This document shows, piece by piece, positions 2,076-35,523 of a DNA stretch of 64,000 bases. Source of the stretch: Ardenticatenia bacterium (GTDB lineage Bacteria; Chloroflexota; Anaerolineae; 4572-78; NAK82); contig QEXY01000108.1 of the NCBI GenBank assembly GCA_003130875.1, forward strand, positions 3,806-67,805, in the 5' to 3' direction. Each line of letters begins with the position of its first letter. Position 1 is the stretch's first letter. Below the pieces are notes generated by a model that saw nothing but the letters and a program-made list of their open reading frames with translations, was not told the origin of the DNA and did no database searches. Position numbers and translations under genes: made by a program.

Positions 2076-4619
2076 TCAGCGCCGCAATTCCGACACCTGG
2101 AGTGCCGCACGCAGCACCACCTTATCATCCAGCACCTCACCTGTGGCACTCACCACGGGCAGCCGCTCCCGAGTGACCGGGTCATACATTCCTACGAATA
2201 GGTCGAACGCGCCTGCCGGCATCTCGCGTGGCAGGGGAACGCGCACCGGATCTACCACCACCTCACCTGCCTGCCAGTTGTGAGTCGGGTAGGCGCCATC
2301 ATCCGGCATCGTGTCGCGCTGAGTCAGGAGACGCTCCTCGCCTGCCTCCATCCTGTCTATCACGTGGACGAAGACGGTATAATCTTGCGGCATATCCTGC
2401 TGTGCCTGCCAATATAGAACCATGCCAAACCAGCAGGCCGTTGTCACGGTTATGCTAGTTTCGTCTCCGCACGTCGGCAGCTGCAGATCGTAACCCACTA
2501 AACGTATCAAATTACCCAGTGAAGCATTCACCTGATATTGAGGACGCGGCACCTGCCACAGGCGTTCCACTGGCCCTCCCTCCGGCATGCCGAACACCTG
2601 GGAGAAACGTGCCAGCTCCAACAACGTTCCCTCGCTGGGCAGGCGCAACGCATAGCGCGCGTCCGCGACGGGGTGTGGCGTCAGCCGTATGCCGGGTTGC
2701 CATGGATCACGCCCGCGCATCACTCCCAATGCCAGGCGAAATGCGGACATATCTCGCGTGTACCATGGCAAGGTGTTGAACACAATGCGCACCCGTTCAC
2801 CCACCTGCCAGCGGCTCGTCGGATGCCAGACGAGTGCAGGCTGATCCACTGTTGTGGCACCGCGTGGAACACCCCACTCATCTAACAGGTACAGGGCAAT
2901 GAATAAATCCTCGTCCAGCGGGCGCAACGGTTCCATCCAAAGCACGACTTGCACCTCTTCGGCGCGATTGAAGCGCAGGTCGAAGCCCGCCAGGCGCAGC
3001 GCATCACCGAAGCTGGCCATAATGGGATGCTGCGGCAGAGCATCCTCCGCACGGGCGAAGTCAGTGAACGCCGGTGGCAGCTGATCGGGTTCGAGCGGCG
3101 GTGCCGAGGGCGTCGCGCGCAACAACAGGAAACCGTCCTCGGCAACCAATGGCTCCCATCCTCCTTGTTTGAGCAGCGCTATGATCACCTGGCGTTGGAA
3201 GTCATCCTGGTTGACCAGCGTGGAGACGTCGAACAGAAGATAATCGGGGGGTGGCAGCGTGCCGTCATAACAGCACGGGCCACCCTGCAGGAGCGCGGTG
3301 AGCAGCTGCGGATCGTAATACAGGACGCGCCTTCCGCTGACATGCGGGTTCAGATTGCTTTGGGCGAAAAGTGCCGCTTCGGGCGGTATTTGGGCGAAGA
3401 CCTCCTGAGCGCGGTGCGCGTGGGCGGTCACCGACGGCAGGCGGAACGGCCGTGCTAGGGGCGAGAAGCCCCGCGCATAGTGATAACCCAACGCACCGAT
3501 GAACAGCCAGGCACATGTGCCGAGCAAGACGTAGCGGGTGGCGGTGCGCCAACAGCGGGCGATGCGCATTCCCACCGCACGGATGCCCCACAGCGCCGAG
3601 ATGAGCACAAACGGCGTCAGCGGTGCCGCATAATGGAACTCTTCCAGCCGCCAGGTAAAGGGATTATCGCTGAGCAAGTTAATCGCCAGCGTGGGCAGCG
3701 TGGGCAACCAGGTCAGCGGGCTGAGTGCCGCCAGCAGGCCGGTGGGCAGCAACAGACCGCCCAAGTAGGCGGGCAGGTTGGCACGCTGCCATATGTGCTG
3801 CCACACCACTTCGGGGCGCTGCAGCAGAGTTCCCACCATCTCGGGCAGGTCGCGGCCCAACCAGGCATAGCGCACTGCCTGAATGTTGCCGCCGGTGGGG
3901 CTGAAAATGGGCTGCACTACGCTCAGCGCCACGACAAACCAGACGATGCCGCCCAGCAAGGCGGGCAACCCGAAACGCCAGCGGCGCGTCACCAGCGCAT
4001 ACAAGCCGAGCGATGCCACCGTCAGCGCCATGTCTTCTTTGCACGCCATCGCCAGCACCGCTGCCAGGGCAAAACGGCCAGGACGACGCGTTTCCAGGTA
4101 GTAGAAGGCGAACAGCAGGAAGGTGGGCGCCAGCGTGACGGCGTGGAAATCATACAATATAGCAGCTTCCAGCGCCGGCATGAGCAGGTAGGCGAGCGGG
4201 AAGACCAGTGCCAACCATGCCCCGACGCGACTGCCCACCGCTCCCCCTACGGATTCGTCTTGCCACAGTGCCCGTTGTGCCAGCCGGAACAGCGGCCATG
4301 CGCCCAGCCCCACCACGGCCGCCTGCACGAGCAGCAGCGCCACCGGGCCGCCCAGCCCCAGCCAATAGAATGGCACGAAGAGCAGCAGGATCGGCTCGAC
4401 GTGCAGCGCCAGCCGGTTGCGCAGCGGCGCCATATTGGTGAAGGCCATGAAGTCGCCATGGGCGGTGTTCCAAAGCGCCTGGTCGACGTTGCCCAGGTCC
4501 ATTCCGTTGCTCTCCAAGGCGAAATGGCGCTGGACGGCCAGGAAAGCGAACGTTACCACGAAGGTGACGCTCAGCAAGCCCAGCACAATGTGGGGCGCGT
4601 TTCTCCTGATTGCCCTCAT
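2076..4619 (-). CDS. DUF2079-like polytopic membrane protein with two C-terminal copies of the recurrent YWQA/YTVFVH domain
   Basis: Start moved to ATG 4617-4619 (MRAIRRNAPHIVLG...), which forms an ATGA overlap with the upstream stop. The first 150 codons of track ORF 2076..5069 are Arg/Gly-rich read-through of the neighbouring gene. NGMDLGNVDQALWNT and multiple TM segments recall DUF2079. Confidence 0.7.
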   Translation of the reverse strand: MRAIRRNAPHIVLGLLSVTFVVTFAFLAVQRHFALESNGMDLGNVDQALWNTAHGDFMAFTNMAPLRNRLALHVEPILLLFVPFYWLGLGGPVALLLVQAAVVGLGAWPLFRLAQRALWQDESVGGAVGSRVGAWLALVFPLAYLLMPALEAAILYDFHAVTLAPTFLLFAFYYLETRRPGRFALAAVLAMACKEDMALTVASLGLYALVTRRWRFGLPALLGGIVWFVVALSVVQPIFSPTGGNIQAVRYAWLGRDLPEMVGTLLQRPEVVWQHIWQRANLPAYLGGLLLPTGLLAALSPLTWLPTLPTLAINLLSDNPFTWRLEEFHYAAPLTPFVLISALWGIRAVGMRIARCWRTATRYVLLGTCAWLFIGALGYHYARGFSPLARPFRLPSVTAHAHRAQEVFAQIPPEAALFAQSNLNPHVSGRRVLYYDPQLLTALLQGGPCCYDGTLPPPDYLLFDVSTLVNQDDFQRQVIIALLKQGGWEPLVAEDGFLLLRATPSAPPLEPDQLPPAFTDFARAEDALPQHPIMASFGDALRLAGFDLRFNRAEEVQVVLWMEPLRPLDEDLFIALYLLDEWGVPRGATTVDQPALVWHPTSRWQVGERVRIVFNTLPWYTRDMSAFRLALGVMRGRDPWQPGIRLTPHPVADARYALRLPSEGTLLELARFSQVFGMPEGGPVERLWQVPRPQYQVNASLGNLIRLVGYDLQLPTCGDETSITVTTACWFGMVLYWQAQQDMPQDYTVFVHVIDRMEAGEERLLTQRDTMPDDGAYPTHNWQAGEVVVDPVRVPLPREMPAGAFDLFVGMYDPVTRERLPVVSATGEVLDDKVVLRAALQVSELRR

Positions 4620-6679
4620 GGCAAAGCCACCTCCTCCAGGATGAGACCGCCACCACCGCCACGCGCTCCTTGCGTTGGTGGCAACACCGCCCAGCTCTGG
4701 GGATCGTACATGCCCACCTCCAATTGATAGCGACCAGGTGGCGTTTCCGCGGGCCGTATCAAACGCTGCACATCCTCGATCAACTGCCCTGCCTTCCAGC
4801 GGTAGGTGGGCAGGAAGCCCATTACCGGCGGCGCGTCGGCACGCGCATAAATCGTGCCGGCGCCGTCCACCGCCCGCACGTAGACGAAGTATTCGGGCAG
4901 GTTGCTGCGCAGCGCGCGCCAATAGAGCGCCACGTCCAACCCATGCGGATGGTCGGCCGCCGGGCGCACTGCATATCCCTCCAAGACGACCACGTCGCCC
5001 ATGCGCACCCCCAGCGGGATGGCGCCCTCGGGCAAACCGCCACGCACGATCACCGCTGGATAGATCCACGCATATGCGACGCCGTTAATGTGGACGACGT
5101 GTTCGGGAATGCGCCTCTGAAAATATGCAATCAGGTTGGGATCAGGGATGTTACGTTGCACCTGGTTGACGTAGAAGACGGCATAATCCGCCTGGAGCAC
5201 ATTTTCGGTGGTGAAGAGGAGAGTCCTGCCTTTGAAGTAGGGCGCGAACGTCCATTCATACCAGGCTGCGACGCGCAATTGATCTGCATCCAGCTTAGTA
5301 TTGAGATATTCCGCGGCGCGGTCCATGCCCTCACCCCAGGCAATGTGCATGACGCGCGGCACCCACAGCCAACCCAGGAGCAGTGGATTGTAGTAGCTCA
5401 GGTAGTAGGGGGCATAGGGCAGCGTCCCAGCAAGCAAGAGGATGCCCCCCAACAGCGCCAGCCGCGGACGTGTCAGCACGGCGATTCGGTCTGTCAGCCC
5501 GTCCATAGCACGCAGCAGCCCCCAGGCGGCCAACGGTGCCAGCGCCACCAGTGGCATCAACGCATAGCGCACGCTTTTCTTCTCGGCGAAGGTCATCACC
5601 ACCAGATAGAACACGACATATACCCAGAGCGACCATTCCAATCGCCGGTGCGTCGCGCGGCGCAGGGTGAACAGGCCGACCAGCACGCCGATGAGCATCA
5701 GCGGCGAGATGCGCACCAGCAGCGCCAGCGGGTAGAACCCCGGTCCGGGGTCGAACACCGTCTGACCCATCCAGTACATGCCTAGATTGCCGGAGCCAGG
5801 TGGCATATTCTTCCACAGCCAGTCGAAGGCCCACACCACCGCGCCGAGAGGATCCACCCACATCGCTGGCCAGATGAGCGCAAAGGTGACAGCTGCCACC
5901 AGCACGCTGACCAGCCACTGCCCGGCAGCCGGCACGATCCAACGGTGAAGGGCAGGCGCATGCGGCCGCTCCGTCCACCAAAAGAGCAGCGCGAGGAGCG
6001 CCAGCGCCGGCAGCAATACCAGCGCTATCGTGACGGTCGAGATGGAAAGCCCGCAAAAGACGCCGCTCAACACAAGCCAGAGGCGGCGGCGTTGCACCAG
6101 CCACAGCAACCAGAGGGTCACCGTCAGGAACATCAGCAGCGCCAGCGGCACCGCCATGTGCACCAGGCGCCCGTAGCCCAACAGCGTAGCGTCGAAGGCC
6201 AGAAGCAACGTGGCAATCAGCGCCACCCGGTCGCCATAAACCCGACGGCCGAACAGATAGATGAATTCCAGTAACACGGTCACCAACACAATGGTGGCAA
6301 TGCGCGCGGCGACGTAGTAGGGGCGGGGCTGGATGTGCCATCCCGCCAGGAACTGATCCAGCGACAGACCCGGCGGAAAGCTGGGCACCCAACCTTGCCG
6401 TGCCAGGACGAACTCCAGCGCCAGGGCTGCGCCGTGTGCCCAGGCGAGCGGCATGTCCGGATAGCCCATTCCCAACGTCAAGCGCAGGTCACCGCTCGTC
6501 AGCCCTTCGAGGAACTGCATCGCGCTGTTCAGGATGGGGCGCTCATCCGCGGCGATGAAACGGTCGATGTCCCACAGGCGCGGCAACAGGATGAGCACGG
6601 CCAGCACTAAGCAGACCAGCCATATGGGTGCCAGAGGACGGTCGTCCGGCCACTTCGGGGCGCTGAGATGTGTTACCAT
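4616..6679 (-). CDS. GT-C-like (ArnT/PMT_2-like) polytopic membrane protein with the recurrent C-terminal domain
   Basis: Start placed at ATG 6677-6679 (MVTHLSAPKWPDD...), overlapping the upstream stop region. More than 10 hydrophobic segments. C-terminal tail LEGYAV..LYWRAL..YFVYVRAVD..ADAPP..LPTYRW..VGMYDP. Confidence 0.7.
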   Translation of the reverse strand: MVTHLSAPKWPDDRPLAPIWLVCLVLAVLILLPRLWDIDRFIAADERPILNSAMQFLEGLTSGDLRLTLGMGYPDMPLAWAHGAALALEFVLARQGWVPSFPPGLSLDQFLAGWHIQPRPYYVAARIATIVLVTVLLEFIYLFGRRVYGDRVALIATLLLAFDATLLGYGRLVHMAVPLALLMFLTVTLWLLWLVQRRRLWLVLSGVFCGLSISTVTIALVLLPALALLALLFWWTERPHAPALHRWIVPAAGQWLVSVLVAAVTFALIWPAMWVDPLGAVVWAFDWLWKNMPPGSGNLGMYWMGQTVFDPGPGFYPLALLVRISPLMLIGVLVGLFTLRRATHRRLEWSLWVYVVFYLVVMTFAEKKSVRYALMPLVALAPLAAWGLLRAMDGLTDRIAVLTRPRLALLGGILLLAGTLPYAPYYLSYYNPLLLGWLWVPRVMHIAWGEGMDRAAEYLNTKLDADQLRVAAWYEWTFAPYFKGRTLLFTTENVLQADYAVFYVNQVQRNIPDPNLIAYFQRRIPEHVVHINGVAYAWIYPAVIVRGGLPEGAIPLGVRMGDVVVLEGYAVRPAADHPHGLDVALYWRALRSNLPEYFVYVRAVDGAGTIYARADAPPVMGFLPTYRWKAGQLIEDVQRLIRPAETPPGRYQLEVGMYDPQSWAVLPPTQGARGGGGGLILEEVALP

Positions 6680-8730
6680 ATCCCCTCCAGACGCAGTGGC
6701 ACAGCGTTCTCGCCGCTCGTATCGCCCACCACGGGCAGCCGTTCCAGCGTGTCCAGTCGATAGAGACCCACCCATAGCGTAAAACTGTCCAGCGGCGTGC
6801 CCCGTGGCAGCTGGAGCACGCTGCGCTCGCGGATGGTGCGTCCGGGTGGCCACAGGGTGGGGGGATAGACCGGCGCCAGAGGCACGTGATCCGCCTGTGC
6901 CACGGTGCGCCCCAGGTCATCCCGCAGGTGTACGAACACCGTGTAGTCATACTCCAACGGGCGCTGTGCCTGCCAGTAGAGCACCAATTCCAGACTGCGT
7001 ACCGGATTGCCGACGAGCAGCGCGACATCATAGCCCTGCAGGGTGATCCGGTCGCTGAACTGGACAGCGAGTGGCCGCGTGGGATGCTCCGGGATGAGAC
7101 GGGCGCCCGGCCGTGAGCGCAGGATGATGATGCCGTTCTCCTCACGTACAAAGTCGGTCATCGCCAGCAGACGCTGCATGGTGAGGGGGGTGAAATACTC
7201 GAGCGTCAGCCCCCAGCGCTCCAGCACCAGCCAGACACGCCGCGGTCCGCTCAGCACGGCGTGCAGTTGTGCATCGCTGCCCAGCCACGGCGATCCCACC
7301 CAACGATCCACGATCTGCCCAGCCCGCTCCATCAGGCGATAGGCATAGCCGGTGCCCTGCATAGCGTAGTAATCGTTGCGCCCCAGGTAGAACGCCGCCG
7401 CTGCTGGTGTGCCCGTGAGGACGGCGTCGCCCGCCTGCCAATTGGCACGCACATAAGCAAAGGCGGCGTCGTAATCGCTGCCGCGGCGTGCCACGAGTGC
7501 GGCAGCTGCCGGACCATAACCCCCTGCGATGACGGCACAGGCTGCCAATGCCATCGGCATCCCCACACGACGCAGTTGTCCCTCACGCTGCAACACGCGA
7601 GCCAGAAAGCCCGCCAGACGTACCAATCCCTCTGCTGCCAGCAGGGCTAGCATGGGCAAGAGCATGAAGTAATAGCGCTCATCGCGCCGTTGTGGCGCCA
7701 CCCCCAGCCCCATCTCCAGCACGCTGACGCCGACCAGCCACGCCAGGAAGAGGACGGCGCGGTCGCGTGTATCCGTTGTGCTGCCACGTCGATGGCGCAA
7801 TGCCGTGCCTATGCTTCCCACCGCCAAGATGGACAGCCAGAGATGTTCTGGCGCGCCGAAGAAAGCCGCGGCGGCCGGCCAGCCCGCCGCCACATCTTCC
7901 GGCCAGGCAGCGTAAATGCTCAGTACCTGGAGGAGGCCGCTGAAGATGCTGGACGGCGTGCCTTCCAGAGGAGCGATGCTGTTCGGTTGCCCCAGCCGCT
8001 TGACCAGCACTGCCACTATGGCCACACCCGCCCAGACGGGCAGCTCCACCAAAAAGGTACGCAGCCCCTTATGGCGCGCATGCCGCCCCAGGAGCATCCC
8101 CATGCCGCTCACCAGCGGCACGAGCAGGGCCAGCGCGACGAAGTGGGTCAGCGCGGCAGATAACAGTGCCGCCGCGGCCAGCAGACGCCAGCGGCGGCTG
8201 TCCTGCACCGCGCCGCGCAGGGCAGCGTCGCTCGCCAGCAGCACCCACACCAGCAGCAAGCTGTACATACGCGCGCGGCCACCCCACAGGACGGCATCCG
8301 GAGCAAATGCCAGCACGGCTGCGGTGAGCAACCCGGTCAGCGTGCTGAAATGGCGCCGCCCCCAATGCCAGGCCAACAAGATGCTGCCCAGGCTGGCCAG
8401 CAAGCTGGCGGCGCGCACTGCCTCGCGACTGAAACCGGCAAGGGCGCTCGCAGCCGCGCCCAGGTAGGAGAAGAAGAGACCGTGCTCGTAGAACAGGCCA
8501 GAAGGGAGAATGGGCAATCCTCGCTCCAGAATGGCGCGCACCGCCAGCAGGGTGACGAACTCGTCGGGATAGGGTTGCACGTGCACCAGGTAGCGCCAAC
8601 GCCACCATGCCGCCAGCCCTACCACTGCCACCATCGCGGCGGCCAAGGCGAAATATCCTCTTTCGTGAGTGTTGTTGCGCAGGCGAGTCGCGTCCTCTGT
8701 CACTGGAAAAGCAGCGGGGCGCAGGCACAA
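6673..8730 (-). CDS. GT-C-like (ArnT/PMT-like) polytopic membrane protein with the recurrent C-terminal domain
   Basis: 685-aa ORF with polytopic N-terminal two-thirds. Tail LQGYDV..LYWQAQ..DYTVFVHLRD..QADHVP..YPPTLW..VGLYRL. The start is uncertain: the track start is TTG at 8728-8730, with an alternative GTG at 8701-8703. Confidence 0.7.
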   Translation of the reverse strand: MCLRPAAFPVTEDATRLRNNTHERGYFALAAAMVAVVGLAAWWRWRYLVHVQPYPDEFVTLLAVRAILERGLPILPSGLFYEHGLFFSYLGAAASALAGFSREAVRAASLLASLGSILLAWHWGRRHFSTLTGLLTAAVLAFAPDAVLWGGRARMYSLLLVWVLLASDAALRGAVQDSRRWRLLAAAALLSAALTHFVALALLVPLVSGMGMLLGRHARHKGLRTFLVELPVWAGVAIVAVLVKRLGQPNSIAPLEGTPSSIFSGLLQVLSIYAAWPEDVAAGWPAAAAFFGAPEHLWLSILAVGSIGTALRHRRGSTTDTRDRAVLFLAWLVGVSVLEMGLGVAPQRRDERYYFMLLPMLALLAAEGLVRLAGFLARVLQREGQLRRVGMPMALAACAVIAGGYGPAAAALVARRGSDYDAAFAYVRANWQAGDAVLTGTPAAAAFYLGRNDYYAMQGTGYAYRLMERAGQIVDRWVGSPWLGSDAQLHAVLSGPRRVWLVLERWGLTLEYFTPLTMQRLLAMTDFVREENGIIILRSRPGARLIPEHPTRPLAVQFSDRITLQGYDVALLVGNPVRSLELVLYWQAQRPLEYDYTVFVHLRDDLGRTVAQADHVPLAPVYPPTLWPPGRTIRERSVLQLPRGTPLDSFTLWVGLYRLDTLERLPVVGDTSGENAVPLRLEGIW

Positions 8731-9002
8731 GGCATCGCGATGCCAAGCACCTCGCCCCGTCTCCTTCCAAGAATGAGGTTATTATAGCAAGGGGGATAGC
8801 AGGGGGCAAAACGGAACAGCGGCCTCCGCATTTCATTCTTGGGGAGGCGTGAGGTCAGGCCATCGTTCCAGTCCGTCCCCAAATTTGAAATACACTCTCT
8901 GGAGCAGTGCGACATGCGAAAAGAGCGGCACTGTGTTATGATGCGGCGACTGTCCCATCGAGGACGGTTGGTAAGCGCTATCTTATCGGAGCTGTCAACC
9001 CT

Positions 9003-11732: not shown

Positions 11733-11761
11733 TTGCATATGATGTTGAAATATGGTATCAT
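11733..11761 (+). promoter_or_regulatory. Putative sigma-70-type promoter of the CHAT cassette
   Basis: TTGCAT (11733-11738), 17-nt spacer, TATCAT (11756-11761), about 140 nt upstream of the CHAT start. Confidence 0.4.
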
Positions 11762-11900
11762 GTTATGGAAAGTCCGCGCGGACGAGGGTGTGCCGAAGCG
11801 GTCTCGCAGATTAATAAGCCCATACAACAACCGCCTGCTCCCAAAAACCATGGGGCAGGCGACTTTGTTGTATGGCTGTCACCATGCAAGGGGGAAGCTT

Positions 11901-13322
11901 ATGCGTTACGTGGACTTTACGATCCGTGCCCGCGACTGGCAGGATGGCCATTTCAAGGTGGAGGTCACCCAGTCGCCGCTGGACCGCATGCGGGAACCGG
12001 AACAGGTCAGCCAGCTGCCCAACCTGGTGCGCCATCTGCGCAATTTGGAGCGCAAACGGATTTCCACACCAGATTTGCGCGCGCTGGGCAAACAGCTGGC
12101 CGAGATGTTGTTGCCCCCCACGGTGCGCGAGATGTTCTTCGCCAGCATGGCCGCGCTCGACCCGGAAAGCGGGCTGCGCCTGCGGCTGGTGCTGGACGAC
12201 CTGCGCGTGGCCAACCTGCCATGGGAGTATCTCTACCTGTCACCGCTCAAGGAGGAACACACGCCTTATGGCTTTCTGGCACTGGACGCGCGCATTTCGA
12301 TCGTGCGTCACGAGGCGATCCCCATCGCCCCCGGTTCCGTGGGCGCCCGTCTTCCTCTCAAGCTGGTGGTGGGCTTTGCCTCGCCGGCGCAGTGCCCCCG
12401 CCTGGATCTCGCCACCGAACGCGAATATATTGCGAAAGCCCTGGACGGTGTCGCCAGCGTCCAGGTCACCTTCGTGGAGCATCTGACGGCCGAGCGCCTG
12501 GAGGTGGCCTGCCAAGGCGCCCACATGTTCCACTTCGCCGGCCACGCCGGCTTTATGTGGCAGGACAACGGGCGCACGGCTGGATACGGCGCCATTTTCC
12601 TCGAAGACGCACAAGGTGACCTCAGCCCGATGCCGGTCGAACAGTTAGCCCAGACATTGCGCCGCTGCGGCGTGCGCGTCGTCTTCCTAGGCGGTTGCGA
12701 GACAGGCCGGCGCGACGGAGTCAATGCATGGAGCGGCGTGGCGCCTGCACTGATGCGCGTCGGCATTCCCGCTGCCGTCGCCATGCAATACGCCATCTAC
12801 GATGAGGCGGCCATCGCCTTTGCCCACCGTTTCTATGCGGCGCTGTCCGCCGGATTGTCTCTGGACGAGGCCGTGACAGCCGGCCGGCTCGCCATTTTGG
12901 GCCGTGGCAAGGAGGCAGGCACCGAATGGGGAGTGCCGGTGCTCTACATGCGCTCCAGCGATGGGGTGATCTTCCCCGAGATGGCTGCCGACCCATCCCT
13001 GGAAGCGTTCCGCCACGCCCAGCGCGTGCACGTCTCCCAACAGGTGCGGCAACTACGCGACCGTCTGACCGGCATCGAAGTCGGCCAGGCACCCCACACC
13101 ACGCTGGAGGTGACCCAGGAGATCGGCCGGGTCGCTCCCGGCGGTGAAGCGCTCGGCGCGCGCATCGAAAGCATCGCCGCCGGGGTCATCCACGCCATCC
13201 AAAAAGTGGAACACATCGGTCCAGGCGGCAAGCTCACCGGCATCAGCCTGCGCCGAACGGGAGACCGGTCCGCCCAGGCCCTACAGCCCGATGAAGCGCG
13301 AGTGTTGAGGAGAGAACGATGA
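11901..13322 (+). CDS. CHAT-domain (caspase-like) protease
   Basis: Start at ATG 11901 behind GGGGGAAG. The N-terminal FTIRARDWQDGHFKVEVTQSP opening is typical of CHAT proteins. Catalytic-dyad contexts HMFHFAGHAG and VVFLGGCETG. The stop overlaps the next ATG (ATGA at 13319-13322). Confidence 0.85.
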   Translation: MRYVDFTIRARDWQDGHFKVEVTQSPLDRMREPEQVSQLPNLVRHLRNLERKRISTPDLRALGKQLAEMLLPPTVREMFFASMAALDPESGLRLRLVLDDLRVANLPWEYLYLSPLKEEHTPYGFLALDARISIVRHEAIPIAPGSVGARLPLKLVVGFASPAQCPRLDLATEREYIAKALDGVASVQVTFVEHLTAERLEVACQGAHMFHFAGHAGFMWQDNGRTAGYGAIFLEDAQGDLSPMPVEQLAQTLRRCGVRVVFLGGCETGRRDGVNAWSGVAPALMRVGIPAAVAMQYAIYDEAAIAFAHRFYAALSAGLSLDEAVTAGRLAILGRGKEAGTEWGVPVLYMRSSDGVIFPEMAADPSLEAFRHAQRVHVSQQVRQLRDRLTGIEVGQAPHTTLEVTQEIGRVAPGGEALGARIESIAAGVIHAIQKVEHIGPGGKLTGISLRRTGDRSAQALQPDEARVLRRER

Positions 13323-15043
13323 CCGAGCCGGGAATGCGTCTGCGCCAATTGCAACAAATCCCCCTCTTCGCTTTGCGTCAGGCAATGGATCAGCTGCTGG
13401 CGGACGAGAAGACCGAGGCAATCTTACAGCGGCGGTTCGGCCACATCTTCAATCGTCGGCTCCACCACATGCGCCAGGCGATCGCGCGGATGAGCCGCGA
13501 GCAGCTCACCGCCCTGGTGGACGCCTGCCCTGAAATCAGCGATGAGCAGATCGCACAGTTGTTCGAACAATATCGTTTCGGCAGCAATCCCGTGCTCCAG
13601 GTGTACCTCTTCGACAAGACCGTCCTGCGCCGCGATGCTCTCCAGGATCTACATGGCCGCCTGGAGCAAGAGCTGGCTGCCTTCAATCAACCACGCCACG
13701 AGGGTCTTCCGGCGCTGCGCCAGTTGGCCGTCTTTGCACTGATCTCCTTGCCAGAGCAACCGGGCGTTGTAGAGGGGGTCTATCGCTTCCAGACTCGCCT
13801 CGATTACATCGATGCCAACGAGCACGCCGCCTGTACCTATCAGACGCTCTACGGCCTGTTCTGGCTGAGCCCGACGGAGGGCTACCTCACCGTCCAAGTG
13901 CGCAACACCGAGGTGCTGAAGGTACTTAAGGGTGCATTGGAGCGCGCCATGGGCATCTCGTTAGCCCCTTTGGTGATCTCCAAACAGCTTAAGAATGCGC
14001 TGCCGTTCCTGCTGCGCGAGTCCTTCCGCTTCGGCCGGTTGCACGACCCCGACCCAGGTCCGGGACGCTTCCGCTGGCTGACCATCGCCGACGACAACGC
14101 CTATGCCCGGGGGTATCAGGATCTGGAAGAGCGCTATCCGGAAGTGCACAGCGTCCGCTACCGCGAGACGTTGGGCGAGGACCGCGAGACAACGCTCACC
14201 ATTCGCTGTGACCGTGGCGCCTTGAGCCTGAGCGGCATCCTCAGCGCCGCGCAGCTGCGCGCCTGGACACTGGACCGCCTTGGGCAGCTGATCAGCCTGC
14301 TGAATGAATTTCGCCCCAACGCTCCGGCATACGCGACAGGGACGTCCGACCTGGAACAGCTGCCCCCACTGAGTCCCTTCAGCATCATCCAGCGCCATCA
14401 CGTCCGCCGGATCATCTCCGCGTTGTTGACGGTGAAACAATCCCCGCTTTTAGGTTATCACCCACTCGACGTGGATCCTTTGCAGCTGGCCCACGACATG
14501 GGCACCTGGATGCGTCTGCAAATCCCTGTGGAGCACCCGGCGATGTCCGAGGAGAGCGAAGGCTACCTGGCCTGTCCGACGTGCGGTGGCACCACCACCT
14601 TTGCCCTGCAGCGGCGCAACGGCGGCTGGGAGTTGGGGTGTCGCGAACACCGCCAGCAGCGCTGGGCAGCCCCCTTGCCCCTCATCATAGGTGAGACGGA
14701 GACGCAAGAGACTTTCACCCTCGACGCCGAAGAGCTTGCCACTACGATGGAACTGCTCCCTTCAGAAGCGTTGCGGCAGATCATCGCTGAGGTGATCAAC
14801 CGCCACCTGCCCGGCCATACCTTTGACTTGAAGCGCGAGAGCTTCATCATCCGTGGCCCTCACCTGCGCTACTACCCAGATAAATCACAGGTGTACGACA
14901 GCGCACAATCCGGCGCCCGGACGGTCATCTATGTGAGCCAGCACATCGCCCACCTCGAAGGAGGTGAGGTCGTGGGCGTCAAACCAGAAGGCAGCGAGAT
15001 CGAAGTGCGCACCAGCTGCGCCTCCGCGACGCCATCGGACTGA
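13319..15043 (+). CDS. Hypothetical 574-aa protein, translationally coupled partner of the CHAT protease
   Basis: Long ORF with composition typical of this genome's coding regions. Contains a zinc-ribbon-like CPTCGG(x18)GCREH. I recognise no family. Confidence 0.75.
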   Translation: MTEPGMRLRQLQQIPLFALRQAMDQLLADEKTEAILQRRFGHIFNRRLHHMRQAIARMSREQLTALVDACPEISDEQIAQLFEQYRFGSNPVLQVYLFDKTVLRRDALQDLHGRLEQELAAFNQPRHEGLPALRQLAVFALISLPEQPGVVEGVYRFQTRLDYIDANEHAACTYQTLYGLFWLSPTEGYLTVQVRNTEVLKVLKGALERAMGISLAPLVISKQLKNALPFLLRESFRFGRLHDPDPGPGRFRWLTIADDNAYARGYQDLEERYPEVHSVRYRETLGEDRETTLTIRCDRGALSLSGILSAAQLRAWTLDRLGQLISLLNEFRPNAPAYATGTSDLEQLPPLSPFSIIQRHHVRRIISALLTVKQSPLLGYHPLDVDPLQLAHDMGTWMRLQIPVEHPAMSEESEGYLACPTCGGTTTFALQRRNGGWELGCREHRQQRWAAPLPLIIGETETQETFTLDAEELATTMELLPSEALRQIIAEVINRHLPGHTFDLKRESFIIRGPHLRYYPDKSQVYDSAQSGARTVIYVSQHIAHLEGGEVVGVKPEGSEIEVRTSCASATPSD

Positions 15044-20966: not shown

Positions 20967-21283
20967 CGCTGTGCGCTCACCCATCTGCCTTGCGCAGCCT
21001 TGCAAAGCTGGACGGATATGGCGGGTGTCGCCCGTCCAGCAAAATACCCGATGCTATCATACACTTCCCGAGCAGGCGGTGCAACCGGGGTGTATTTCAA
21101 ATTTGGGGGCGGGTTGAGCGGTAACCCAGAGTCACGAGGGTTGTCCGGGCCGCGACCGTCGGGCAGCGCTGCAGGGGCGATCGGATGATTGTCCCCACAA
21201 CCCTCCTCAAAAGTGAAAGGCACGCGTGCAACCAGCCGCGTGCGTTTTACACCTGCACGGTCTCCGCTATAATCGTTCTCGAT

Positions 21284-22411
21284 ATGCGCCCTCGAGAACG
21301 GAAAGCGCTGCATCGCACCTACACCGATCCTGGAGAGCACTCTGAGAAGGATGTTCGCGTGTCCATCATCACCGAGCGCGCTGTGTGGCAAGAGTTCGTC
21401 GCGCGCCATCCCGCCGGGCATCTGCTGCAAACCTGGGATTGGGGCGAGCTCAAGGCACGCTTCGGCTGGCACGCCATCCGCATCGCATTGACGGATGAGA
21501 CGGGCAGTCCATCCGCCGGCGCCCAGGTGTTGCTGCATCCATTACCGGTACCGGGCGGACGTGCTCTTGCGTACGTCCCCAAAGGCCCGCTGGTGGACTG
21601 GCACGATCCGATCCAAGCCGGACGCCTGCTCGACGCGATTCATCCGCTGTGTCGCGCCCAACGGTGCATCTTCCTCAAGATCGAGCCACCAGCGGAAGAC
21701 GACGCGGCCCTGTGTGCGGCCATCGCGCAGTATGGCTTCCGGCCCTATGCGCCGACCGTACAGCCACCGCGCACCATCCTCATCGACCTGAGCTTCTCCG
21801 AGGAAGCCATCCTGGCAAGGATGAAACAAAAGACACGCTATAACATCCGCCTGGCAGCGCGCAAAGGGGTGCGAGTATACGAGGGGCATGCCGACCATGT
21901 GGCAGTGTTCTATCAGCTGCTGGAGGACACCAGTCGGCGCGACCATTTCGCCATTCACCATTTTGACTACTACCGCACCGCGTACGAGCTCTTCGCGCCG
22001 CACCATGCGGCGCTCCTGTTGGCCGAGGTGGCAGGTGAGGTGGTCGCCGGCCTGATGGTGTTCACCTATGGGCGGACGGCCTACTACCTCTTCGGCGCCT
22101 CAAACGATCGGCATCGCGAGCACATGCCCACCTACCTGCTCCAGTGGGAGGCGATGCGCTGGGCACGCGCACGCGGCTGCACCGCGTACGATCTGTGGGG
22201 CATACCGGATGCAGAAGAAGAGACGCTGGAAAGTCATCTCGCCCACGCGGATCGCCGCACTGGGGAACTATGGGGGGTCTATCGCTTCAAACGCGGTTTT
22301 GGTGGCCAGGTGGTGCGCAGTGTGGGCGCTTTTGATTACGTCTATAATCCCTTGCTCTATCGCCTCTATCGCTGGTGGCAAGTGTTGCGGCGCCGCGCGT
22401 ATACAGGATGA
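21284..22411 (+). CDS. FemAB-family peptidoglycan bridge-forming aminoacyltransferase, paralogue 1
   Basis: HLLQTWDWGELK..AYVPKGP..MKQKTRYNIRLA..YYLFGASND..MPTYLLQWEAMRWA..YDLWG. The start is uncertain: ATG 21284 was chosen, and a later GTG is possible. Confidence 0.75.
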   Translation: MRPRERKALHRTYTDPGEHSEKDVRVSIITERAVWQEFVARHPAGHLLQTWDWGELKARFGWHAIRIALTDETGSPSAGAQVLLHPLPVPGGRALAYVPKGPLVDWHDPIQAGRLLDAIHPLCRAQRCIFLKIEPPAEDDAALCAAIAQYGFRPYAPTVQPPRTILIDLSFSEEAILARMKQKTRYNIRLAARKGVRVYEGHADHVAVFYQLLEDTSRRDHFAIHHFDYYRTAYELFAPHHAALLLAEVAGEVVAGLMVFTYGRTAYYLFGASNDRHREHMPTYLLQWEAMRWARARGCTAYDLWGIPDAEEETLESHLAHADRRTGELWGVYRFKRGFGGQVVRSVGAFDYVYNPLLYRLYRWWQVLRRRAYTG

Positions 22412-23511
22412 ACCCGATGGCAAACGGTCAGACCAGCTGTCAAGTCATACCGGTCGCGGACCGGGAGGCATGGGATTCTGCCCTGTTGCAACTCCCCCGC
22501 CCACATGTGCTCCAGACATGGGATTGGGGGGCGTTCAAAGAGCGTTGGGGATGGCAAGCCACGCGCTGGCTCTGGCTACAGGCGGGCCGGCCGGTGGCGG
22601 CAGCCCAGCTGTTAAGGCGTCGCCTGGGGCGCATGCCCCTCTCGATCGTCTATGTGCCCAAGGGTCCTTTGTTCGACATCGCCGAATTGGCCTTGTGGCA
22701 GGCCGTGCTCGCCGCGCTGGAGGCCGAGGCACGTCGCGGCGTGCTTTTCGTCAAGATCGACCCCGACGTGCCGCTCAACGCCGCAGATGAGGGTATGGCA
22801 ACGCCGCCGGACATCACTGCCATCCGCGACCTGCTCCGACGGCGCGGCTGGCGTCTTTCCGCCGAGCAGATCCAGTTCAAGAACACGGTGCTGCTCGACC
22901 TCACCGCCGACGAGGAGACCCTGCTGGCGCGCATGAAACCCAAGACACGCTACAACATCCGCCTCGCCGCGCGGCGCGGTGTCGCGGTACGCCCAGGAGG
23001 ATCGGAAGACCTGGCCGCCTTCTATCATCTCTATCGTATCACGGCACAGCGTGATGGATTCATCATCCGGCCGTTCGCCTATTATCGCGACGTGTGGTCG
23101 CAGTTCCTCGCCGCCGGGCGCGCCCACCTGTTGCTGGCCGAGCTGGAAGGACAGCCCATCGCCGGACTGCTTATGTTCGTCTTCGGTCACACGGCATGGT
23201 ACATGTACGGCGCTTCGGACAACGCCCATCGCGAGCGGATGCCCAGCCATCTGCTGCAATGGGAGGCGATCCGGCTGGCCAGACGACTGGGATGCACCCG
23301 CTACGACATGTGGGGGGCACCGGACCGGCTGGACGAAAGCGACCCGATGTGGGGCGTTTATCGTTTCAAAGCGGGATTTGGCGGCCAGACGGTACTCGGT
23401 CTGGGCGCCTGCGACTTCACGACCTTCCCAGTCGGGTATTATCTCTACACCGTGGTGATGCCGCGTCTGCTGGCGGTCATGCGCATGACCGCCAGAGCGG
23501 CTGCCGTTTGA
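22408..23511 (+). CDS. FemAB-family peptidoglycan bridge-forming aminoacyltransferase, paralogue 2
   Basis: Same motif set as paralogue 1 (VLQTWDWGAFK..VYVPKGP..MKPKTRYNIRLA..WYMYGASDN..LLQWEAIRLA). ATG 22408 forms an ATGA overlap with the paralogue 1 stop. Confidence 0.8.
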   Translation: MNPMANGQTSCQVIPVADREAWDSALLQLPRPHVLQTWDWGAFKERWGWQATRWLWLQAGRPVAAAQLLRRRLGRMPLSIVYVPKGPLFDIAELALWQAVLAALEAEARRGVLFVKIDPDVPLNAADEGMATPPDITAIRDLLRRRGWRLSAEQIQFKNTVLLDLTADEETLLARMKPKTRYNIRLAARRGVAVRPGGSEDLAAFYHLYRITAQRDGFIIRPFAYYRDVWSQFLAAGRAHLLLAELEGQPIAGLLMFVFGHTAWYMYGASDNAHRERMPSHLLQWEAIRLARRLGCTRYDMWGAPDRLDESDPMWGVYRFKAGFGGQTVLGLGACDFTTFPVGYYLYTVVMPRLLAVMRMTARAAAV

Positions 23512-25750: not shown

Positions 25751-28714
25751 ATGGTATCTGCGACGGACAACCAACCGCCTTCCCCGATGAGGGCTGCGAG
25801 GGCATCGGATGCCGCATCAGCTGCAGCCTCTTCAGCGCGCCGCGTCGACGCAGGTCTGCTGGTTGCTCTGCTCCTGACACTGTTTGCCATCTGGCCGCTG
25901 CTGGCCCACCGCGGCCTGCCCAACACGGCGGACGGGGCGGTGCACCTGATGCGTCAGGCGGAGCTCAACCAAGCCTGGAAGGATGGCATCCTGTATCCGC
26001 GCTGGGCGCCGGACCTGGCATATGGATACGGTATGCCCCTCTTTCACTACGCGCCGCCGCTGCTCTATCAGGTGACGCAGGGGTTGCATATGGCGGGACT
26101 ACCCCTGGATGAGGCGATGAAAAGCACTCTGATCATGATGGTGCTGCTCTACAGCACGGGCAGCTATCTCTTCGTGCGGGATGTTTTCAGCCCACGTGCG
26201 GGAGTGCTGGCGGCTGCCACGTACTTATATGCCCCCTACCGTCTGCGTGAGCTCTACATCCAGGGCAATTACGGTCAGTTCTGCGGGCTTGCCTTCTACC
26301 CGCTTATCCTGTGGGCGTTCTACCGCAGCGCCACCGACCGGTCACCACGCTATCTGCCGCTGGCAGGGCTGGCGTTGGCGGGGTTGTTGCTGAGCCACAA
26401 CATCAGCTTCATGCTGTTCGTCCCCCTGTGGATGGGTTATCTCGCCTACCTGCTCCTGTTTGGCGCGCCGGAGATGCTGGGACGGAGGACGGTGGTGAAG
26501 CGTTTCGTCCTGGCCGGCGTCTTGGGACTGGGGCTCGCTGCCTTCTTCTGGCTGCCCGCCTTCGCCGAACGCGATGCGATCCGCCTCGCCGGCATCACCA
26601 CTGGTTTCTTCGATTTTCGGCGCAACTTCATCGGCCTGGACGAATTGCTCGCCCTGCCGCGCCCGCTTGACCAGGCAGCTGTCAATCCCTACTTCCCGCT
26701 GAGCCTGGGCGCCTCACAACTGGCGTGGGCCGGACTGGCGCTGGTGAGCTGCCTTGTGTGTCTATCGATCGGGCTGGGCCACTTCCTGGTCCGTGGAACC
26801 GTCCCGGACAGGAAACCCCTTGAATGTCCTGCGGACCGACACCTGAGCGGACACGTCCTCTACTTCGGCGCTGCCTTGCTGGTGTATGGCTTTCTGATGC
26901 TTCCCGAATCGCAGCCCTTATGGGAGGCAGCGCCTCTGCTTGAACTGGCCGAGTTTCCCTGGCGTATGTTAGGGCCGGCGGGGTTATGCGCCGCGGTGCT
27001 GGCCGGCGGATGGGTCCATCTGTGGGAAAGGTGGTTTGCTTCCGCTGCCTTGTCCCAGCGCGCCGGCCGCGTCGTCCTGGTCATCGGGCTGGCGCTGACC
27101 CTGGCCGCCCATCTGTTTTACTTCTTTCCCACCCAATTCATCGCCTGGGGTACGCCCACCCCCGACGACGTGATGGCCTATGAGCGGCGTTCTCGCGCCA
27201 TCGGCACCACCAGTACCGGCGAATTCCTGCCGCGCTGGGCAGAGCGGCACCCTTCGCCCGACGTGCTGGCGCCCCCACAAGCGAGCGACGAGCTCGCCCC
27301 GCGGGTCGAACCGCTCTCCCTGCCAGAAGGCGCCCGCACCAGGACGCTGCAGGTCACCGCGCACCAGATCCTGTTGTACGTCAACAGCCCAAGGGATTTC
27401 ACCGCCACCTTCCGGTTGTTGTACTGGCCTGGCTGGCAGGTGTGGATCCGGCAGCTGCCCGATGGAGCATGGCAACCGGTGACAGAGGTCGAGGTCACCC
27501 GGCCGGATGGACTGATGCGCGCACCGCTGCCCGCCGGCGAGATCGAGGTCTTACTCCGTTTAGAAGAATCCCCCCTGCGCCGTTTCAGTGCGTGGGTTTC
27601 TCTACTGGCTGCCATCGCGTGCGCCGGGATCGTGCTCTGGACACGGCTGCACCCCACCACAAAATCGCAGCGCGCGGTTGCTACATCCCCGGACGCGCAT
27701 CCCCGACCGACCCTCCGCACGTATCCGCGGCGTGAGGCGTTGATCCTTGCGTCCGGCCTTCTGGCCGCCGTGCTGGCAATTCGCCCCCTCGAAAGCTGGC
27801 TGCGCGTTCAATCCCCACCCGGCAGTGTGGTGGGCGTGGAACACCCGCGCCGGGCGACCTTCGCCGACCAGGTGCACCTGTTGGGATACGACCTGCCGTC
27901 CTGCAGCCAATGGTGGACGCCAATCCGCTGCACCATGCCCGCAGACGAAGCGCTTCCGGAGATCCTCGCCCAGCCGGGCGAAACGCTGCGCGTCGTGCTC
28001 TACTGGCAGGCGCTGCGCCCCTTGGAACGCGACTACAGCGTGTTCCTGCATCTGAACGGGCTGGATCAGCGCACCTATGCCGGCGACGATGAGGTGCATC
28101 CGGACGACATCCCCACTTCCTCCTGGCCGCCGACAATGTACGTGCGCAATCCGATGCGCCTGGTGTTGCCGGCAGACGCCCCGCCGGTGCGTTACACCCT
28201 CCAGACAGGCCTTTATCTCCGAGCCAATGGAAAACGGCTGCATGCCGCGGAGTGCGCCTGCAGCGAATTTCCGCTCGCTTACGTCTGGCTGCTGCCGGCG
28301 GCTCCGCTCACCGAGCAGGATATCCCGAATCGGCTGGGGTATCGGCTGGGCAACACGATTCAGCTGCTCGGCTACCAGCTCGAGCGGTCGCCCGACCGGC
28401 TGACCCTCTATTGGCGCACCGATCAGCGCCAGGTCACCCGTTACACTGTCTTCATCCATGTGTACGACGCGCACGACCACATGATCGCCCAGGCGGATTC
28501 GCCGCCGTTCGGTGGTCTGTACCCCACCGATGCGTGGCTGCCGGGACAGATCATCGCCGATCTCCATACCCTTGCGCTGCCGGCGCAGGCTCACATCCTG
28601 CGCGTGGGTCTCTATGACCTATCCAGCATGCAACGCCTGAGCGCCACCGGTCCGGACGGACAGCCGGCCGCGGAGGACGCCATTGTGATCCCGATCGCCA
28701 ATGCCGAGCTCTAG
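25751..28714 (+). CDS. Giant polytopic membrane protein (PTPS-related/COG5617-like, GT-C-like) with two C-terminal copies of the recurrent domain
   Basis: 987-aa ORF. N-terminal block ADGAVHLMRQAEL..GILYPRWAPDLAYGYGMPLFHYAPPLLY recalls the '6-pyruvoyl-tetrahydropterin synthase-related' membrane family. Domain copies lie at about 27858-28290 and 28343-28711. The start could instead be Met13. Confidence 0.7.
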   Translation: MVSATDNQPPSPMRAARASDAASAAASSARRVDAGLLVALLLTLFAIWPLLAHRGLPNTADGAVHLMRQAELNQAWKDGILYPRWAPDLAYGYGMPLFHYAPPLLYQVTQGLHMAGLPLDEAMKSTLIMMVLLYSTGSYLFVRDVFSPRAGVLAAATYLYAPYRLRELYIQGNYGQFCGLAFYPLILWAFYRSATDRSPRYLPLAGLALAGLLLSHNISFMLFVPLWMGYLAYLLLFGAPEMLGRRTVVKRFVLAGVLGLGLAAFFWLPAFAERDAIRLAGITTGFFDFRRNFIGLDELLALPRPLDQAAVNPYFPLSLGASQLAWAGLALVSCLVCLSIGLGHFLVRGTVPDRKPLECPADRHLSGHVLYFGAALLVYGFLMLPESQPLWEAAPLLELAEFPWRMLGPAGLCAAVLAGGWVHLWERWFASAALSQRAGRVVLVIGLALTLAAHLFYFFPTQFIAWGTPTPDDVMAYERRSRAIGTTSTGEFLPRWAERHPSPDVLAPPQASDELAPRVEPLSLPEGARTRTLQVTAHQILLYVNSPRDFTATFRLLYWPGWQVWIRQLPDGAWQPVTEVEVTRPDGLMRAPLPAGEIEVLLRLEESPLRRFSAWVSLLAAIACAGIVLWTRLHPTTKSQRAVATSPDAHPRPTLRTYPRREALILASGLLAAVLAIRPLESWLRVQSPPGSVVGVEHPRRATFADQVHLLGYDLPSCSQWWTPIRCTMPADEALPEILAQPGETLRVVLYWQALRPLERDYSVFLHLNGLDQRTYAGDDEVHPDDIPTSSWPPTMYVRNPMRLVLPADAPPVRYTLQTGLYLRANGKRLHAAECACSEFPLAYVWLLPAAPLTEQDIPNRLGYRLGNTIQLLGYQLERSPDRLTLYWRTDQRQVTRYTVFIHVYDAHDHMIAQADSPPFGGLYPTDAWLPGQIIADLHTLALPAQAHILRVGLYDLSSMQRLSATGPDGQPAAEDAIVIPIANAEL

Positions 28715-33859: not shown

Positions 33860-35523
33860 CTGGTCTCCTCGATGCGATAGACGATGAACGAGACGGAACC
33901 GTCGCGTCGGAAGGTGCGGAACACCTCGCGCAGCACCAATCCACGTTGTCGCAGCGCCAGCCGGGCCTCGGTCGCAGAGCGCCAGCTGGGAAAGACGATG
34001 TAACGCCGCGCCCCAGGACGCGCGCTCGCCTGGGCAGCTAAATCCTCCGGTGAGCGCCACATGCGAAAGTCGTACGGGCTGCCCCACAGGTAGAAGCGCC
34101 AATGCGGCCCCAGCCAGCGATGGTAGAACGTGGTGTTTTCCGGCACCGTCTTGAAGTAGGCAGCCAACTGGTCAATGCCGTCATAAGCGCCATGGTCGCC
34201 GCCAACGGGAAAGCGACTGGCCGCCGCATCCCGGACGGCGGGCAACGTGCCGGATAACAGCACCAGCACGAGGACCGTGTAGACGACCGCCAACGCGGTG
34301 ATCCCAGCACGCCAAGCTGGAGGCGCCGCAGGCACAATCACCTCCTCAGACTCGGATATCCGCGCACAACACCCGGCGCGCAGAGCACGCCACGGCAACA
34401 CGAGGACACGGGCCAACAGCAGGAGCAGCAACGCCACCGCGCCCAGCATATACCGATCCCAGATCTGAAACCCTATGAAGGCATGTTCCACCAGGAACAG
34501 GAGGAGGAAACCGCCGAGGACCATATCATAGCGAACCGCATCGCCCATCGTTCGCGCGGCACGCCTCGCCACCATTCCCGGCTCCGCGGCGACACTGCCA
34601 GGACATCCTGCGCGCAGCGGCCGCGCCCACATCCCACCCGAACCGCGTCGACGCAGGAACCAGACCACCCCATCCCCCAGCAGCAACCCCGCCACGCCGA
34701 CGAGACACACACGGTTCAGCAACGCTGATCCGGTGGCATATTGCAGCCACGTGGCGAAGCCGACCAGCCGCGGCCAGACCGCTTCCAGCGGCACATGCAT
34801 CGAACCGTAGCTGAGCATGCTCTGTTCCAGAAAGCCAGGACGACGGCCGCGCGCCACGTCCCAGATCAAAGCCAGGCACACCATCCATGCCAGTCCCAGG
34901 ACGAAGCGCTTCCAGGCACCCTTTGAGTGGTACCATCCCAGCCCGGCGATCAGGGGTAGAAACAGGATGCCCTGCTGCTTGGTCATCATCGCCAGTCCTA
35001 GCGCAACCCCTGCCCAACTGGCGCGCTGTTCGACCGCAGCGAGACATGCCGCCAACACCCACATGACCATCAGCGAATCGGTGAGGGCGGTGGCAGCGAA
35101 GAGGATGGCAAACGGAGAGGCCGCCCAGAGAAAGGCGGCCAACAACCCGGCGCCGCGCCCGTAGAGGCGCAGTCCCAGGCGGTACATCAGCAGGGCACTG
35201 ACCACATGCGCGGTCAGGGAGGGTAGACGGGCGGCCGTCTCCGTGGCGCCGAACAGCAGAAAACTGAGCGCCTGAAGGTACATGAAAAGCGGCGGCTTAT
35301 CCACCGGCGAACCGCTCACCATGATGTCGCGTCCGCTCGCGATGTCCAGCGCCCAGGTGCTGTAAACCGCTTCATCGTGATGGAAACGATTGCCCGCCAT
35401 GGGAGGTAGCGGCGCCAAGACCGCCAGCCCCACGACGAACAGCAGCCCGGCACGCAACCCCCAGCAGCGGAGGCGATCGCCTGGCATCAGCCATGCGAGG
35501 CGAGCCCACATCTCTATGAACAT
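33856..35523 (-). CDS. ArnT/PMT-family (GT39/GT83-like) membrane glycosyltransferase
   Basis: 555-aa ORF. HHDEAVYSTWA..SPVDKPPLFMYL.. is the canonical first-loop region of ArnT-like GT-C enzymes. Many TM segments and a soluble C-terminal domain without the recurrent motif. Confidence 0.8.
   Translation of the reverse strand: MFIEMWARLAWLMPGDRLRCWGLRAGLLFVVGLAVLAPLPPMAGNRFHHDEAVYSTWALDIASGRDIMVSGSPVDKPPLFMYLQALSFLLFGATETAARLPSLTAHVVSALLMYRLGLRLYGRGAGLLAAFLWAASPFAILFAATALTDSLMVMWVLAACLAAVEQRASWAGVALGLAMMTKQQGILFLPLIAGLGWYHSKGAWKRFVLGLAWMVCLALIWDVARGRRPGFLEQSMLSYGSMHVPLEAVWPRLVGFATWLQYATGSALLNRVCLVGVAGLLLGDGVVWFLRRRGSGGMWARPLRAGCPGSVAAEPGMVARRAARTMGDAVRYDMVLGGFLLLFLVEHAFIGFQIWDRYMLGAVALLLLLLARVLVLPWRALRAGCCARISESEEVIVPAAPPAWRAGITALAVVYTVLVLVLLSGTLPAVRDAAASRFPVGGDHGAYDGIDQLAAYFKTVPENTTFYHRWLGPHWRFYLWGSPYDFRMWRSPEDLAAQASARPGARRYIVFPSWRSATEARLALRQRGLVLREVFRTFRRDGSVSFIVYRIEETR

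Follow-up and report, generated by a model that had tools for sequence, protein, structure and literature searches.

A C-terminal domain family of Chloroflexota common to many GT-C membrane proteins and a PASTA kinase, with candidate ligand-binding caps and internal spacers

We analyzed 64,000 nt of a 3.5 Mb Ardenticatenia bacterium assembly (Chloroflexota; contig C64:3806-67805, hereafter the window), with emphasis on a domain of about 125 residues that ends several membrane proteins encoded there. At the left end of the window, the open reading frame (ORF) listing contains a tightly packed series of minus-strand genes. Three consecutive members, which we call C, B, and A, encode GT-C-type membrane proteins carrying one or two copies of the domain at their C-termini (Table 1). 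The first-pass annotation of this sequence described the three genes as translationally coupled, and their junctions bear this out: C and B share 7 nt (ATGGTAA) that include the start codon of B, and the start of A sits on the stop of B in an ATGA overlap. It also assigned the N-terminal modules to different families, which agrees with their Pfam matches (DUF2079 versus PMT/PMT_2). Gene A matches DUF2079 (PF09852) at E = 2.7e-67 over the full length of the model (positions 1-459 of 459), while C and B have PMT_2 or PMT matches above the gathering score together with the multi-helix core of GT-C proteins. The order C-B-A is maintained among relatives down to approximately 55-60% protein identity.

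The tails of the three proteins contain a homologous domain, as had been proposed from a shared string of motifs. Isolated tails of B, C, and the distal copy of A are 30-38% identical across 113-125 residues. BLASTP scored A-distal at 69 bits against C, with 38% of 123 aligned residues identical, and at 57 bits against B; B and C scored 53 bits against each other. In a proteome of this size, a score of 53 bits amounts to E of about 1e-8. We built a hidden Markov model (HMM) seeded from the four window tails and iterated on six-frame ORFs of the whole assembly. Its consensus, ...LLGYDL...LYWQAL...DYTVFVHLLD...AQADSQP...YPTSRWQPGE...GEYRLRVGLYDPATGERLPV, reproduces the earlier motif string. The suspected extra, degenerate copy in A is also real. 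It scores only 31 bits against both A-distal and C with BLASTP, but a profile built without it recovers it at E = 7.4e-7 over positions 1-84, as does the iterated HMM (Table 1). The distal copy of A is distinguished by an insertion of roughly 10 residues following the second strand. Counting two copies in A, one each in B and C, and three more on the plus strand (two in the ORF at 25751-28714 and one in its neighbor at 28701-30974), the window holds the seven copies originally counted. The coordinates first given to the copies were approximately right, although the refined limits differ from them by about 15-125 nt, most of all for the degenerate copy.

Table 1. Positions of genes and domain copies in the window.
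Feature	Position	Strand	Description or match
Gene C	6673-8730	minus	PMT_2/ArnT-like GT-C membrane glycosyltransferase; one C-terminal domain copy; first gene of the operon; PMT_2 E = 1.1e-7
Gene B	4616-6679	minus	GT-C, Pfam PMT and PMT_2; one C-terminal domain copy
Gene A	2076-4619	minus	DUF2079-family GT-C-clan membrane protein; two C-terminal domain copies
Domain copy in C, terminal type	6691-7071	minus	HMM E = 3e-38; profile E = 1.6e-41
Domain copy in B, terminal type	4631-5014	minus	HMM E = 5e-34; profile E = 1.6e-36
Distal domain copy in A, terminal type	2109-2531	minus	HMM E = 5e-38; profile E = 3.2e-44
Proximal domain copy in A, degenerate, internal type	2655-3023	minus	HMM E = 4e-20
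Nitroreductase-family gene	1215-2072	minus	PF00881 E = 1.8e-33; inside the operon, 3 nt past the stop of A
Next multi-TM GT-C-like gene, N-terminal part	1-1218	minus	Weak PMT_2 match; continues off the window
CHAT-domain protein and 574-aa protein	11733-15043	plus	CHAT domain caspase-like; 574-aa protein without Pfam match; 4-nt overlap (13319-13322)
Two adjoining FemAB-family genes	21185-23511	plus	Peptidoglycan interpeptide-bridge formation family; overlap of about 37 nt
ORF	25751-28714	plus	PTPS_related/PMT_2 GT-C; two domain copies, about 27842-28267 and 28331-28693
ORF	28701-30974	plus	Membrane protein with eight TM helices, no Pfam match; one domain copy, about 30573-30962
Untailed PMT_2 protein	33856-35523	minus	555 aa; PMT_2 E = 7.3e-18, strongest in the genome

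Across the genome, the converged HMM finds 78 copies in 50 proteins, and an independent profile search finds 76. A single copy is carried by 30 proteins, a tandem pair by 12, and three copies in tandem by 8, and the chain continues for at most 27 residues after the last copy in 49 of the 50. The sole protein with a non-terminal tail, L002 (C119:4399-8382), is a 1328-aa frame that joins three tail copies to a TMEM260-like GT-C core and, at its C-terminus, a hydrolase of HAD type (PF13344/PF13242). It may be a genuine fusion, or one frame that spans two genes. A larger array than that of the window occurs elsewhere in the same genome (C181:92380-113558, minus strand), where a 21-kb run comprises eight GT-C genes, each bearing 1-3 copies of the tail.

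Public sequences show the same domain on a much larger scale. In a library of 1.84 billion proteins clustered at 50% identity, 34,391 cluster representatives match the profile at E ≤ 1e-3 and 25,034 at E ≤ 1e-10. Within the two phyla sampled, Chloroflexota and Actinomycetota, the domain was found only in the former: 60 of 151 Chloroflexota genomes contain it, many reaching at least 27 scored occurrences per genome, and none of 151 Actinomycetota genomes does. The best 80 motif-anchored loci in GTDB representative genomes all belong to Chloroflexota (Anaerolineae, Ardenticatenia, Caldilineae, and Chloroflexia), but the motif was derived from a 6-sequence subset (DYTVFVHL-type) that favors close relatives, so this result is not a full phyletic survey. 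As initially noted, the tail matches no named domain. Isolated window tails had no match in Pfam-A at E ≤ 10, and full proteins had nothing over the tail region in NCBIfam. The similarity among copies holds under profile statistics. Literature on DUF2079, on GT-C proteins in Chloroflexi, and on C-terminal domains of GT39 yielded no description of it. The tail constitutes a new domain family of very large size, for which neither Pfam nor NCBIfam has a curated model.

We compared the tails with the modules to which they are attached. In this genome, the N-terminal modules of the carriers fall into 14 groups that are unrelated by BLAST. Partner families above the Pfam threshold are PMT_2, PMT, DUF2079, TMEM260-like (PF11028), and PTPS_related (PF10131), with weak matches to GT87 and DUF6541 and some groups lacking any Pfam match. 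The tail is present on 32 of the 50 PMT_2 matches of the genome. The strongest of these matches lies in the window and is a tailless protein of 555 aa, so classical ArnT-size GT-C enzymes coexist with tailed ones.

The domain also terminates a protein kinase. L009 (C30:11533-13470) consists of a Pkinase domain (E = 1.1e-53), one transmembrane (TM) helix (strongest hydrophobic segment at residues 333-357), two PASTA repeats, and then the domain at residues 515-632. This makeup, with the PASTA repeats outside the cell, is that of a PASTA Ser/Thr kinase of the PknB/PrkC/Stk1 kind. The same fusion recurs in 44 distinct clusters of Stk1-like kinases from Anaerolineae, with one C-terminal copy and E-values down to 1e-42, whereas Streptomyces and Paraconexibacter kinases among the same kinase matches are without the domain. 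The L009 copy itself has lost the PTSxW loop through a deletion of about 7 residues (...HESPL-------AMSQAGE...), and this loop is kept in nearly all orthologous kinases.

Given its partners from multiple families and its fusion to a kinase, the tail is a mobile domain rather than a product of whole-gene duplication, which is how it was first interpreted. A shared tail might instead reflect plain paralogy of one much-duplicated ancestral gene, or even compositional chance. A tree of 74 domain copies bears on the former, and since its branches measure 2-3 substitutions per site and are poorly resolved, we used only the number of changes in N-terminal family label. The tree requires 32 such changes, as compared to an average of 38.6 in shuffles, of which 0 of 1000 reached 32. 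The domain tree is thus slightly but significantly associated with N-terminal family, and, judging from this tree, whole-gene duplication has certainly occurred to some extent within families. However, 32 is far above the 8 changes of strict co-inheritance, the fusion to a kinase contradicts paralogy, and tails are 30-38% identical even though the TM modules in proteins A and C belong to different Pfam families and share no BLAST similarity. Chance is countered by profile E-values down to 1e-49. We reject both explanations as hardly credible. Also in this tree, the copy in ORF 28701-30974 and the final copy of the adjoining PTPS_related gene are mutual nearest neighbors (distance 1.66), which hints that a tail was exchanged locally between neighbors whose membrane cores are unrelated.

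Copies of the domain differ in conservation according to their position in the protein (residues are given in HMM numbering). In 16 of the 19 multi-copy proteins of the genome, the highest score belongs to the last copy, with means of 125 versus 89 bits. Here W33, W74, G13, and G95 show the same degree of conservation whatever the position of the copy, whereas T44, F46, H48, Q59, D61, E78, D82, G102, Y104, and R111 are kept much better in terminal ones. This gives terminal copies a near-invariant polar signature (T-x-F-x-H, Q-x-D, E...D, G-x-Y, and R-L), whereas internal copies retain fold residues only. A similar contrast was observed among 150 public multi-copy proteins, where F46, H48, Q59, D61, D82, and R111 are conserved at 93-99% in the last copy versus 8-80% elsewhere, though the size of the contrast may be inflated because these proteins were chosen by score against a terminal-rich profile. 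Individual frequencies in the last copy and in the others are 0.99 and 0.22-0.27 for F46, 0.93 and 0.08-0.27 for H48, 0.98 and 0.19-0.63 for Q59, 0.99 and 0.25-0.80 for D61, and 0.99 and 0.25-0.37 for R111. In this set, W33, W74, and G95 are conserved in every copy. Kinase copies retain the terminal signature, with H48 in 40, Q59 in 41, and D82 in 44 of 45.

The domain is extracytoplasmic, as originally supposed. In the kinase it follows the single TM helix and the extracellular PASTA repeats, and in C it follows an ArnT-type periplasmic domain. AlphaFold2 (AF2) modeled full-length C with a predicted local distance difference test (pLDDT) score of 89 and a predicted template modeling (pTM) score of 0.86, giving a helical membrane core (residues 1-390), an alpha/beta domain (395-514), and a beta-sandwich (527-654). 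The best fold match of this model is ArnT (5f15; E = 3.9e-9, TMt 0.62), followed by STT3, ALG12, AglB, PglB, Emb, AftA, and Pmt4, and comparison with ArnT places the soluble C-terminal part of C in the periplasm. The linker near residues 511-530 is short and has a pLDDT of 92-95, and together with the pTM of 0.86 this suggests that the beta-sandwich packs rigidly on the periplasmic domain of C.

Modeled separately from an alignment of the 50 paralogous copies, the domain copy of C is all-beta with eight strands (pLDDT 94.8, pTM 0.87). Foldseek matches in the Protein Data Bank (PDB) are moderate: the best is the immunoglobulin (Ig)-like beta-sandwich of glycoside hydrolase family 2 (GH2) glycosidases (6hpd; E = 1.7e-4, template modeling (TM)-score 0.59), followed by NPC2 and ApaG. 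Viral structures gave no Foldseek match at E ≤ 0.001, and a sequence-profile search of the PDB gave none that was significant (best E = 0.02-0.04). The domain is thus predicted to be an outward-facing, Ig-like beta-sandwich resembling carbohydrate-binding modules (CBMs). Strand periodicity would place T44, F46, and H48 together on one side of strand 4; the pair Q59 and D61 on strand 5, and E78 and D82 on strand 6, would likewise each lie on a common face.

Several known systems resemble parts of this architecture. Wzt_C (PF14524; structure 2R5O) is likewise an accessory beta-sandwich at the C-terminus of a protein that assembles glycans, and is similar in size (about 130 residues). When aligned to 20 Chloroflexota Wzt_C domains with HHalign, the tail alignment produced a weak match of 53% probability (P = 1.4e-4, 82 in-register columns, reversed-template controls of 0.2-0.3%) that spans strand 3 (the LYWQA region) to strand 7 (G-x-Y-L-x-VGLYD). 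However, searching the whole genome with PF14524 (gathering score 30.4 bits) returned a single locus, a 430-aa Wzt-like ORF on contig C129, and none of the 76-78 tails, and Wzt is absent from the 50 best Foldseek matches of the domain. Wzt_C is also cytoplasmic and attached to an ATPase, in contrast to an extracytoplasmic domain on GT-C enzymes and a kinase. Homology between the two is possible but unproven.

Mycobacterial arabinosyltransferases of the GT-C type, EmbA/B/C (PMC3044687) and AftD (bioRxiv 10.1101/2019.12.22.885152), carry C-terminal extracytoplasmic CBMs, so that the GT-C core is followed by beta-sandwiches that face outward and hold on to the acceptor polymer. These have no detectable sequence relation to the tail. 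The Emb matches to the full-length C model run through the TM core, and Emb CBMs are not among the fold matches of the domain itself. The tail further differs in being one family promiscuously common to many GT-C families and in its division into cap and spacers. As for the kinase, S. aureus PrkC ends in an Ig-like domain past its PASTA repeats, for which peptidoglycan binding has only been proposed (PMC3601408). Both kinases place a beta-sandwich missed by Pfam at the distal end of the ectodomain, but the Chloroflexota domain has eight strands, is shared with glycosyltransferases, and shows no detected sequence similarity to that of PrkC; no PASTA kinase was listed when the PDB was searched with a profile of the domain. 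Finally, the Ig-like domains of GH2 enzymes (Glyco_hydro_2, PF00703) are the best structural neighbors (6hpd, 6ed1, and 2vo5), and the profile search included a weak match to the corresponding domain (residues 213-276) of beta-glucuronidase from E. coli (E = 0.036). In contrast to the tail, they are internal structural modules of soluble hydrolases. PF00703 has no match in the genome and HHalign gave 18.6% over 32 columns, leaving the likeness at the level of fold (TM-score 0.5-0.6).

Gene C is preceded by a 176-nt gap containing a TATAAT-like box at approximately 8779-8784, beyond which lies a divergent SurE gene. In the first extracytoplasmic loop of protein C, P30-D31-E32-F33 is invariant across 43 homologues, and B has ...AADERP... 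at the corresponding position. By analogy with PMT and ArnT, these segments may be the catalytic acidic motif, and the invariance of P-D-E-F suggests that C is an active enzyme. The homologues of C among the matches listed (at least 120) derive from metagenome-assembled genomes of Anaerolineae/Chloroflexota, go by the names 'ArnT family' and 'glycosyltransferase family 39', and have at most PF13231 annotated. Downstream of A, the nitroreductase-family gene overlaps the following GT-C-like gene in GTGA/TGATG. The latter (C64_3089_5056) has its own C-terminal domain copy just left of the window, and beyond it on the contig stands a further GT-C gene with three copies (C64_10_3153); among these downstream genes, L011 has a PMT_2 match at E = 3.2e-15. 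The N-terminus of the nitroreductase-family protein, RRWFLGGLLSLMGGC, resembles a twin-arginine translocation (Tat)-type export signal with a lipobox-like LMGGC, suggesting an exported lipoprotein. An outward-facing flavoenzyme amid a glycosyltransferase operon, translationally coupled on both sides, is puzzling. Elsewhere in the window, the plus strand carries the FemAB-family pair and the overlapping CHAT-domain and 574-aa genes (Table 1).

We sought a function that would account for both the partners of the domain and the difference between its copies. Our preferred interpretation, to which we assign a probability of roughly 0.55, is that an outward-facing beta-sandwich has been shuffled onto the C-termini of GT-C enzymes and a PASTA kinase, with its last copy acting as a cap that binds a common envelope ligand. 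The GT-C partners are many families dependent on lipid-linked sugars, and the kinase is one that senses the cell wall. The last copy, presumably membrane-distal, would be the functional cap, presenting polar and aromatic residues on three neighboring strands, and internal copies, with only their fold-determining residues, would be spacers. Cap binding would hold the acceptor, or would place each enzyme on the polymer being extended or decorated. We take the conserved face to be an exposed, putative binding site. Since a wall-sensing kinase and numerous families of enzymes carry one and the same cap signature, its ligand is likely a common envelope component rather than an enzyme-specific acceptor, probably a wall glycopolymer or the growing end thereof. 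A glycan seems the most likely ligand because the carriers build glycans, GT-C enzymes have known CBMs, and there is a weak link to Wzt_C. The first-pass annotation had offered glycan or wall binding, a ruler, or a targeting role, among which our data favor a ligand-binding cap. Several observations nevertheless weigh against this interpretation. The GH2 domains that are the best structural neighbors are structural and not sugar-binding, and the link to Wzt_C is weak (the 53% match), with the Pfam Wzt_C model matching 0 of 78 copies. One shared ligand is not obviously expected for about 50 enzymes with presumably differing acceptors. Furthermore, the single exposed polar face is deduced from strand periodicity alone, and selection of the 150 public proteins by score could have exaggerated the difference between last and internal copies.

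An alternative is a module that contacts protein or is purely structural, such as a stalk, a docking unit, an assembly factor for GT-C complexes, or a surface-layer anchor, in which the cap face would be a protein interface. The top Foldseek matches of the domain are non-catalytic GH2 Ig-like domains, NPC2, and ApaG, tandem arrays of 1-3 copies are typical for spacers, and the model of C points to rigid packing on the periplasmic domain through its confident linker (pLDDT 92-95, pTM 0.86). Firmicutes PrkC kinases likewise end in an Ig-like domain whose role is unknown (PMC3601408). We consider such a module possible but on the unlikely side: near-invariant acidic, amide, and histidine residues in tens of thousands of copies that are about 30% identical fit a small-ligand, glycan, or metal site better, and the profile link to glycan-binding Wzt_C, albeit weak, is a further point against it. 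The polar cluster could also serve without a separate ligand, either as a structural metal site (e.g., for Ca2+) or as an intramolecular lid on the GT-C active site. Many beta-sandwich accessory domains carry structural calcium, the H/Q/D/E/D residue set is metal-like, and the rigid packing suggested for C would suit a lid. However, a lid does not explain why the signature is retained on a PASTA kinase that has no GT-C active site, and in multi-copy proteins the signature occurs only in the distal copy, presumably the farthest from the active site, which makes metal site and lid alike quite improbable to us.

The ligand-binding cap has a more specific form, in which it would read one particular, undescribed Chloroflexota glycopolymer or its lipid-linked growing end. 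Dozens of GT-C enzymes would share this reader, while the kinase would sense what state the polymer is in, linking polymer assembly with division and the synthesis of peptidoglycan. We view this full scenario as speculative and rather unlikely. If true, the domain would be a handle with which to find and purify the polymer, and would reveal a phylum-wide system of glycan assembly and surveillance.

Accessory beta-sandwiches on GT-C enzymes are already known from Emb and AftD, and the tail represents a new family and architecture as opposed to a new principle. What is new is the sharing of one reader domain among numerous GT-C families and a PASTA kinase, and the split of its copies into caps and spacers. 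A Pfam/InterPro entry is merited and would better annotate tens of thousands of proteins now called 'glycosyltransferase family 39' or 'hypothetical'. Our understanding of the Chloroflexota cell envelope is poor, and about 2% of the genes in such genomes encode GT-C enzymes with unknown products. A single uncatalogued domain, matching approximately 34,000 representative clusters, marks most of these enzymes as well as a wall-sensing kinase, and a recombinant cap domain may serve as a probe with which to stain the ligand or capture it by pull-down.

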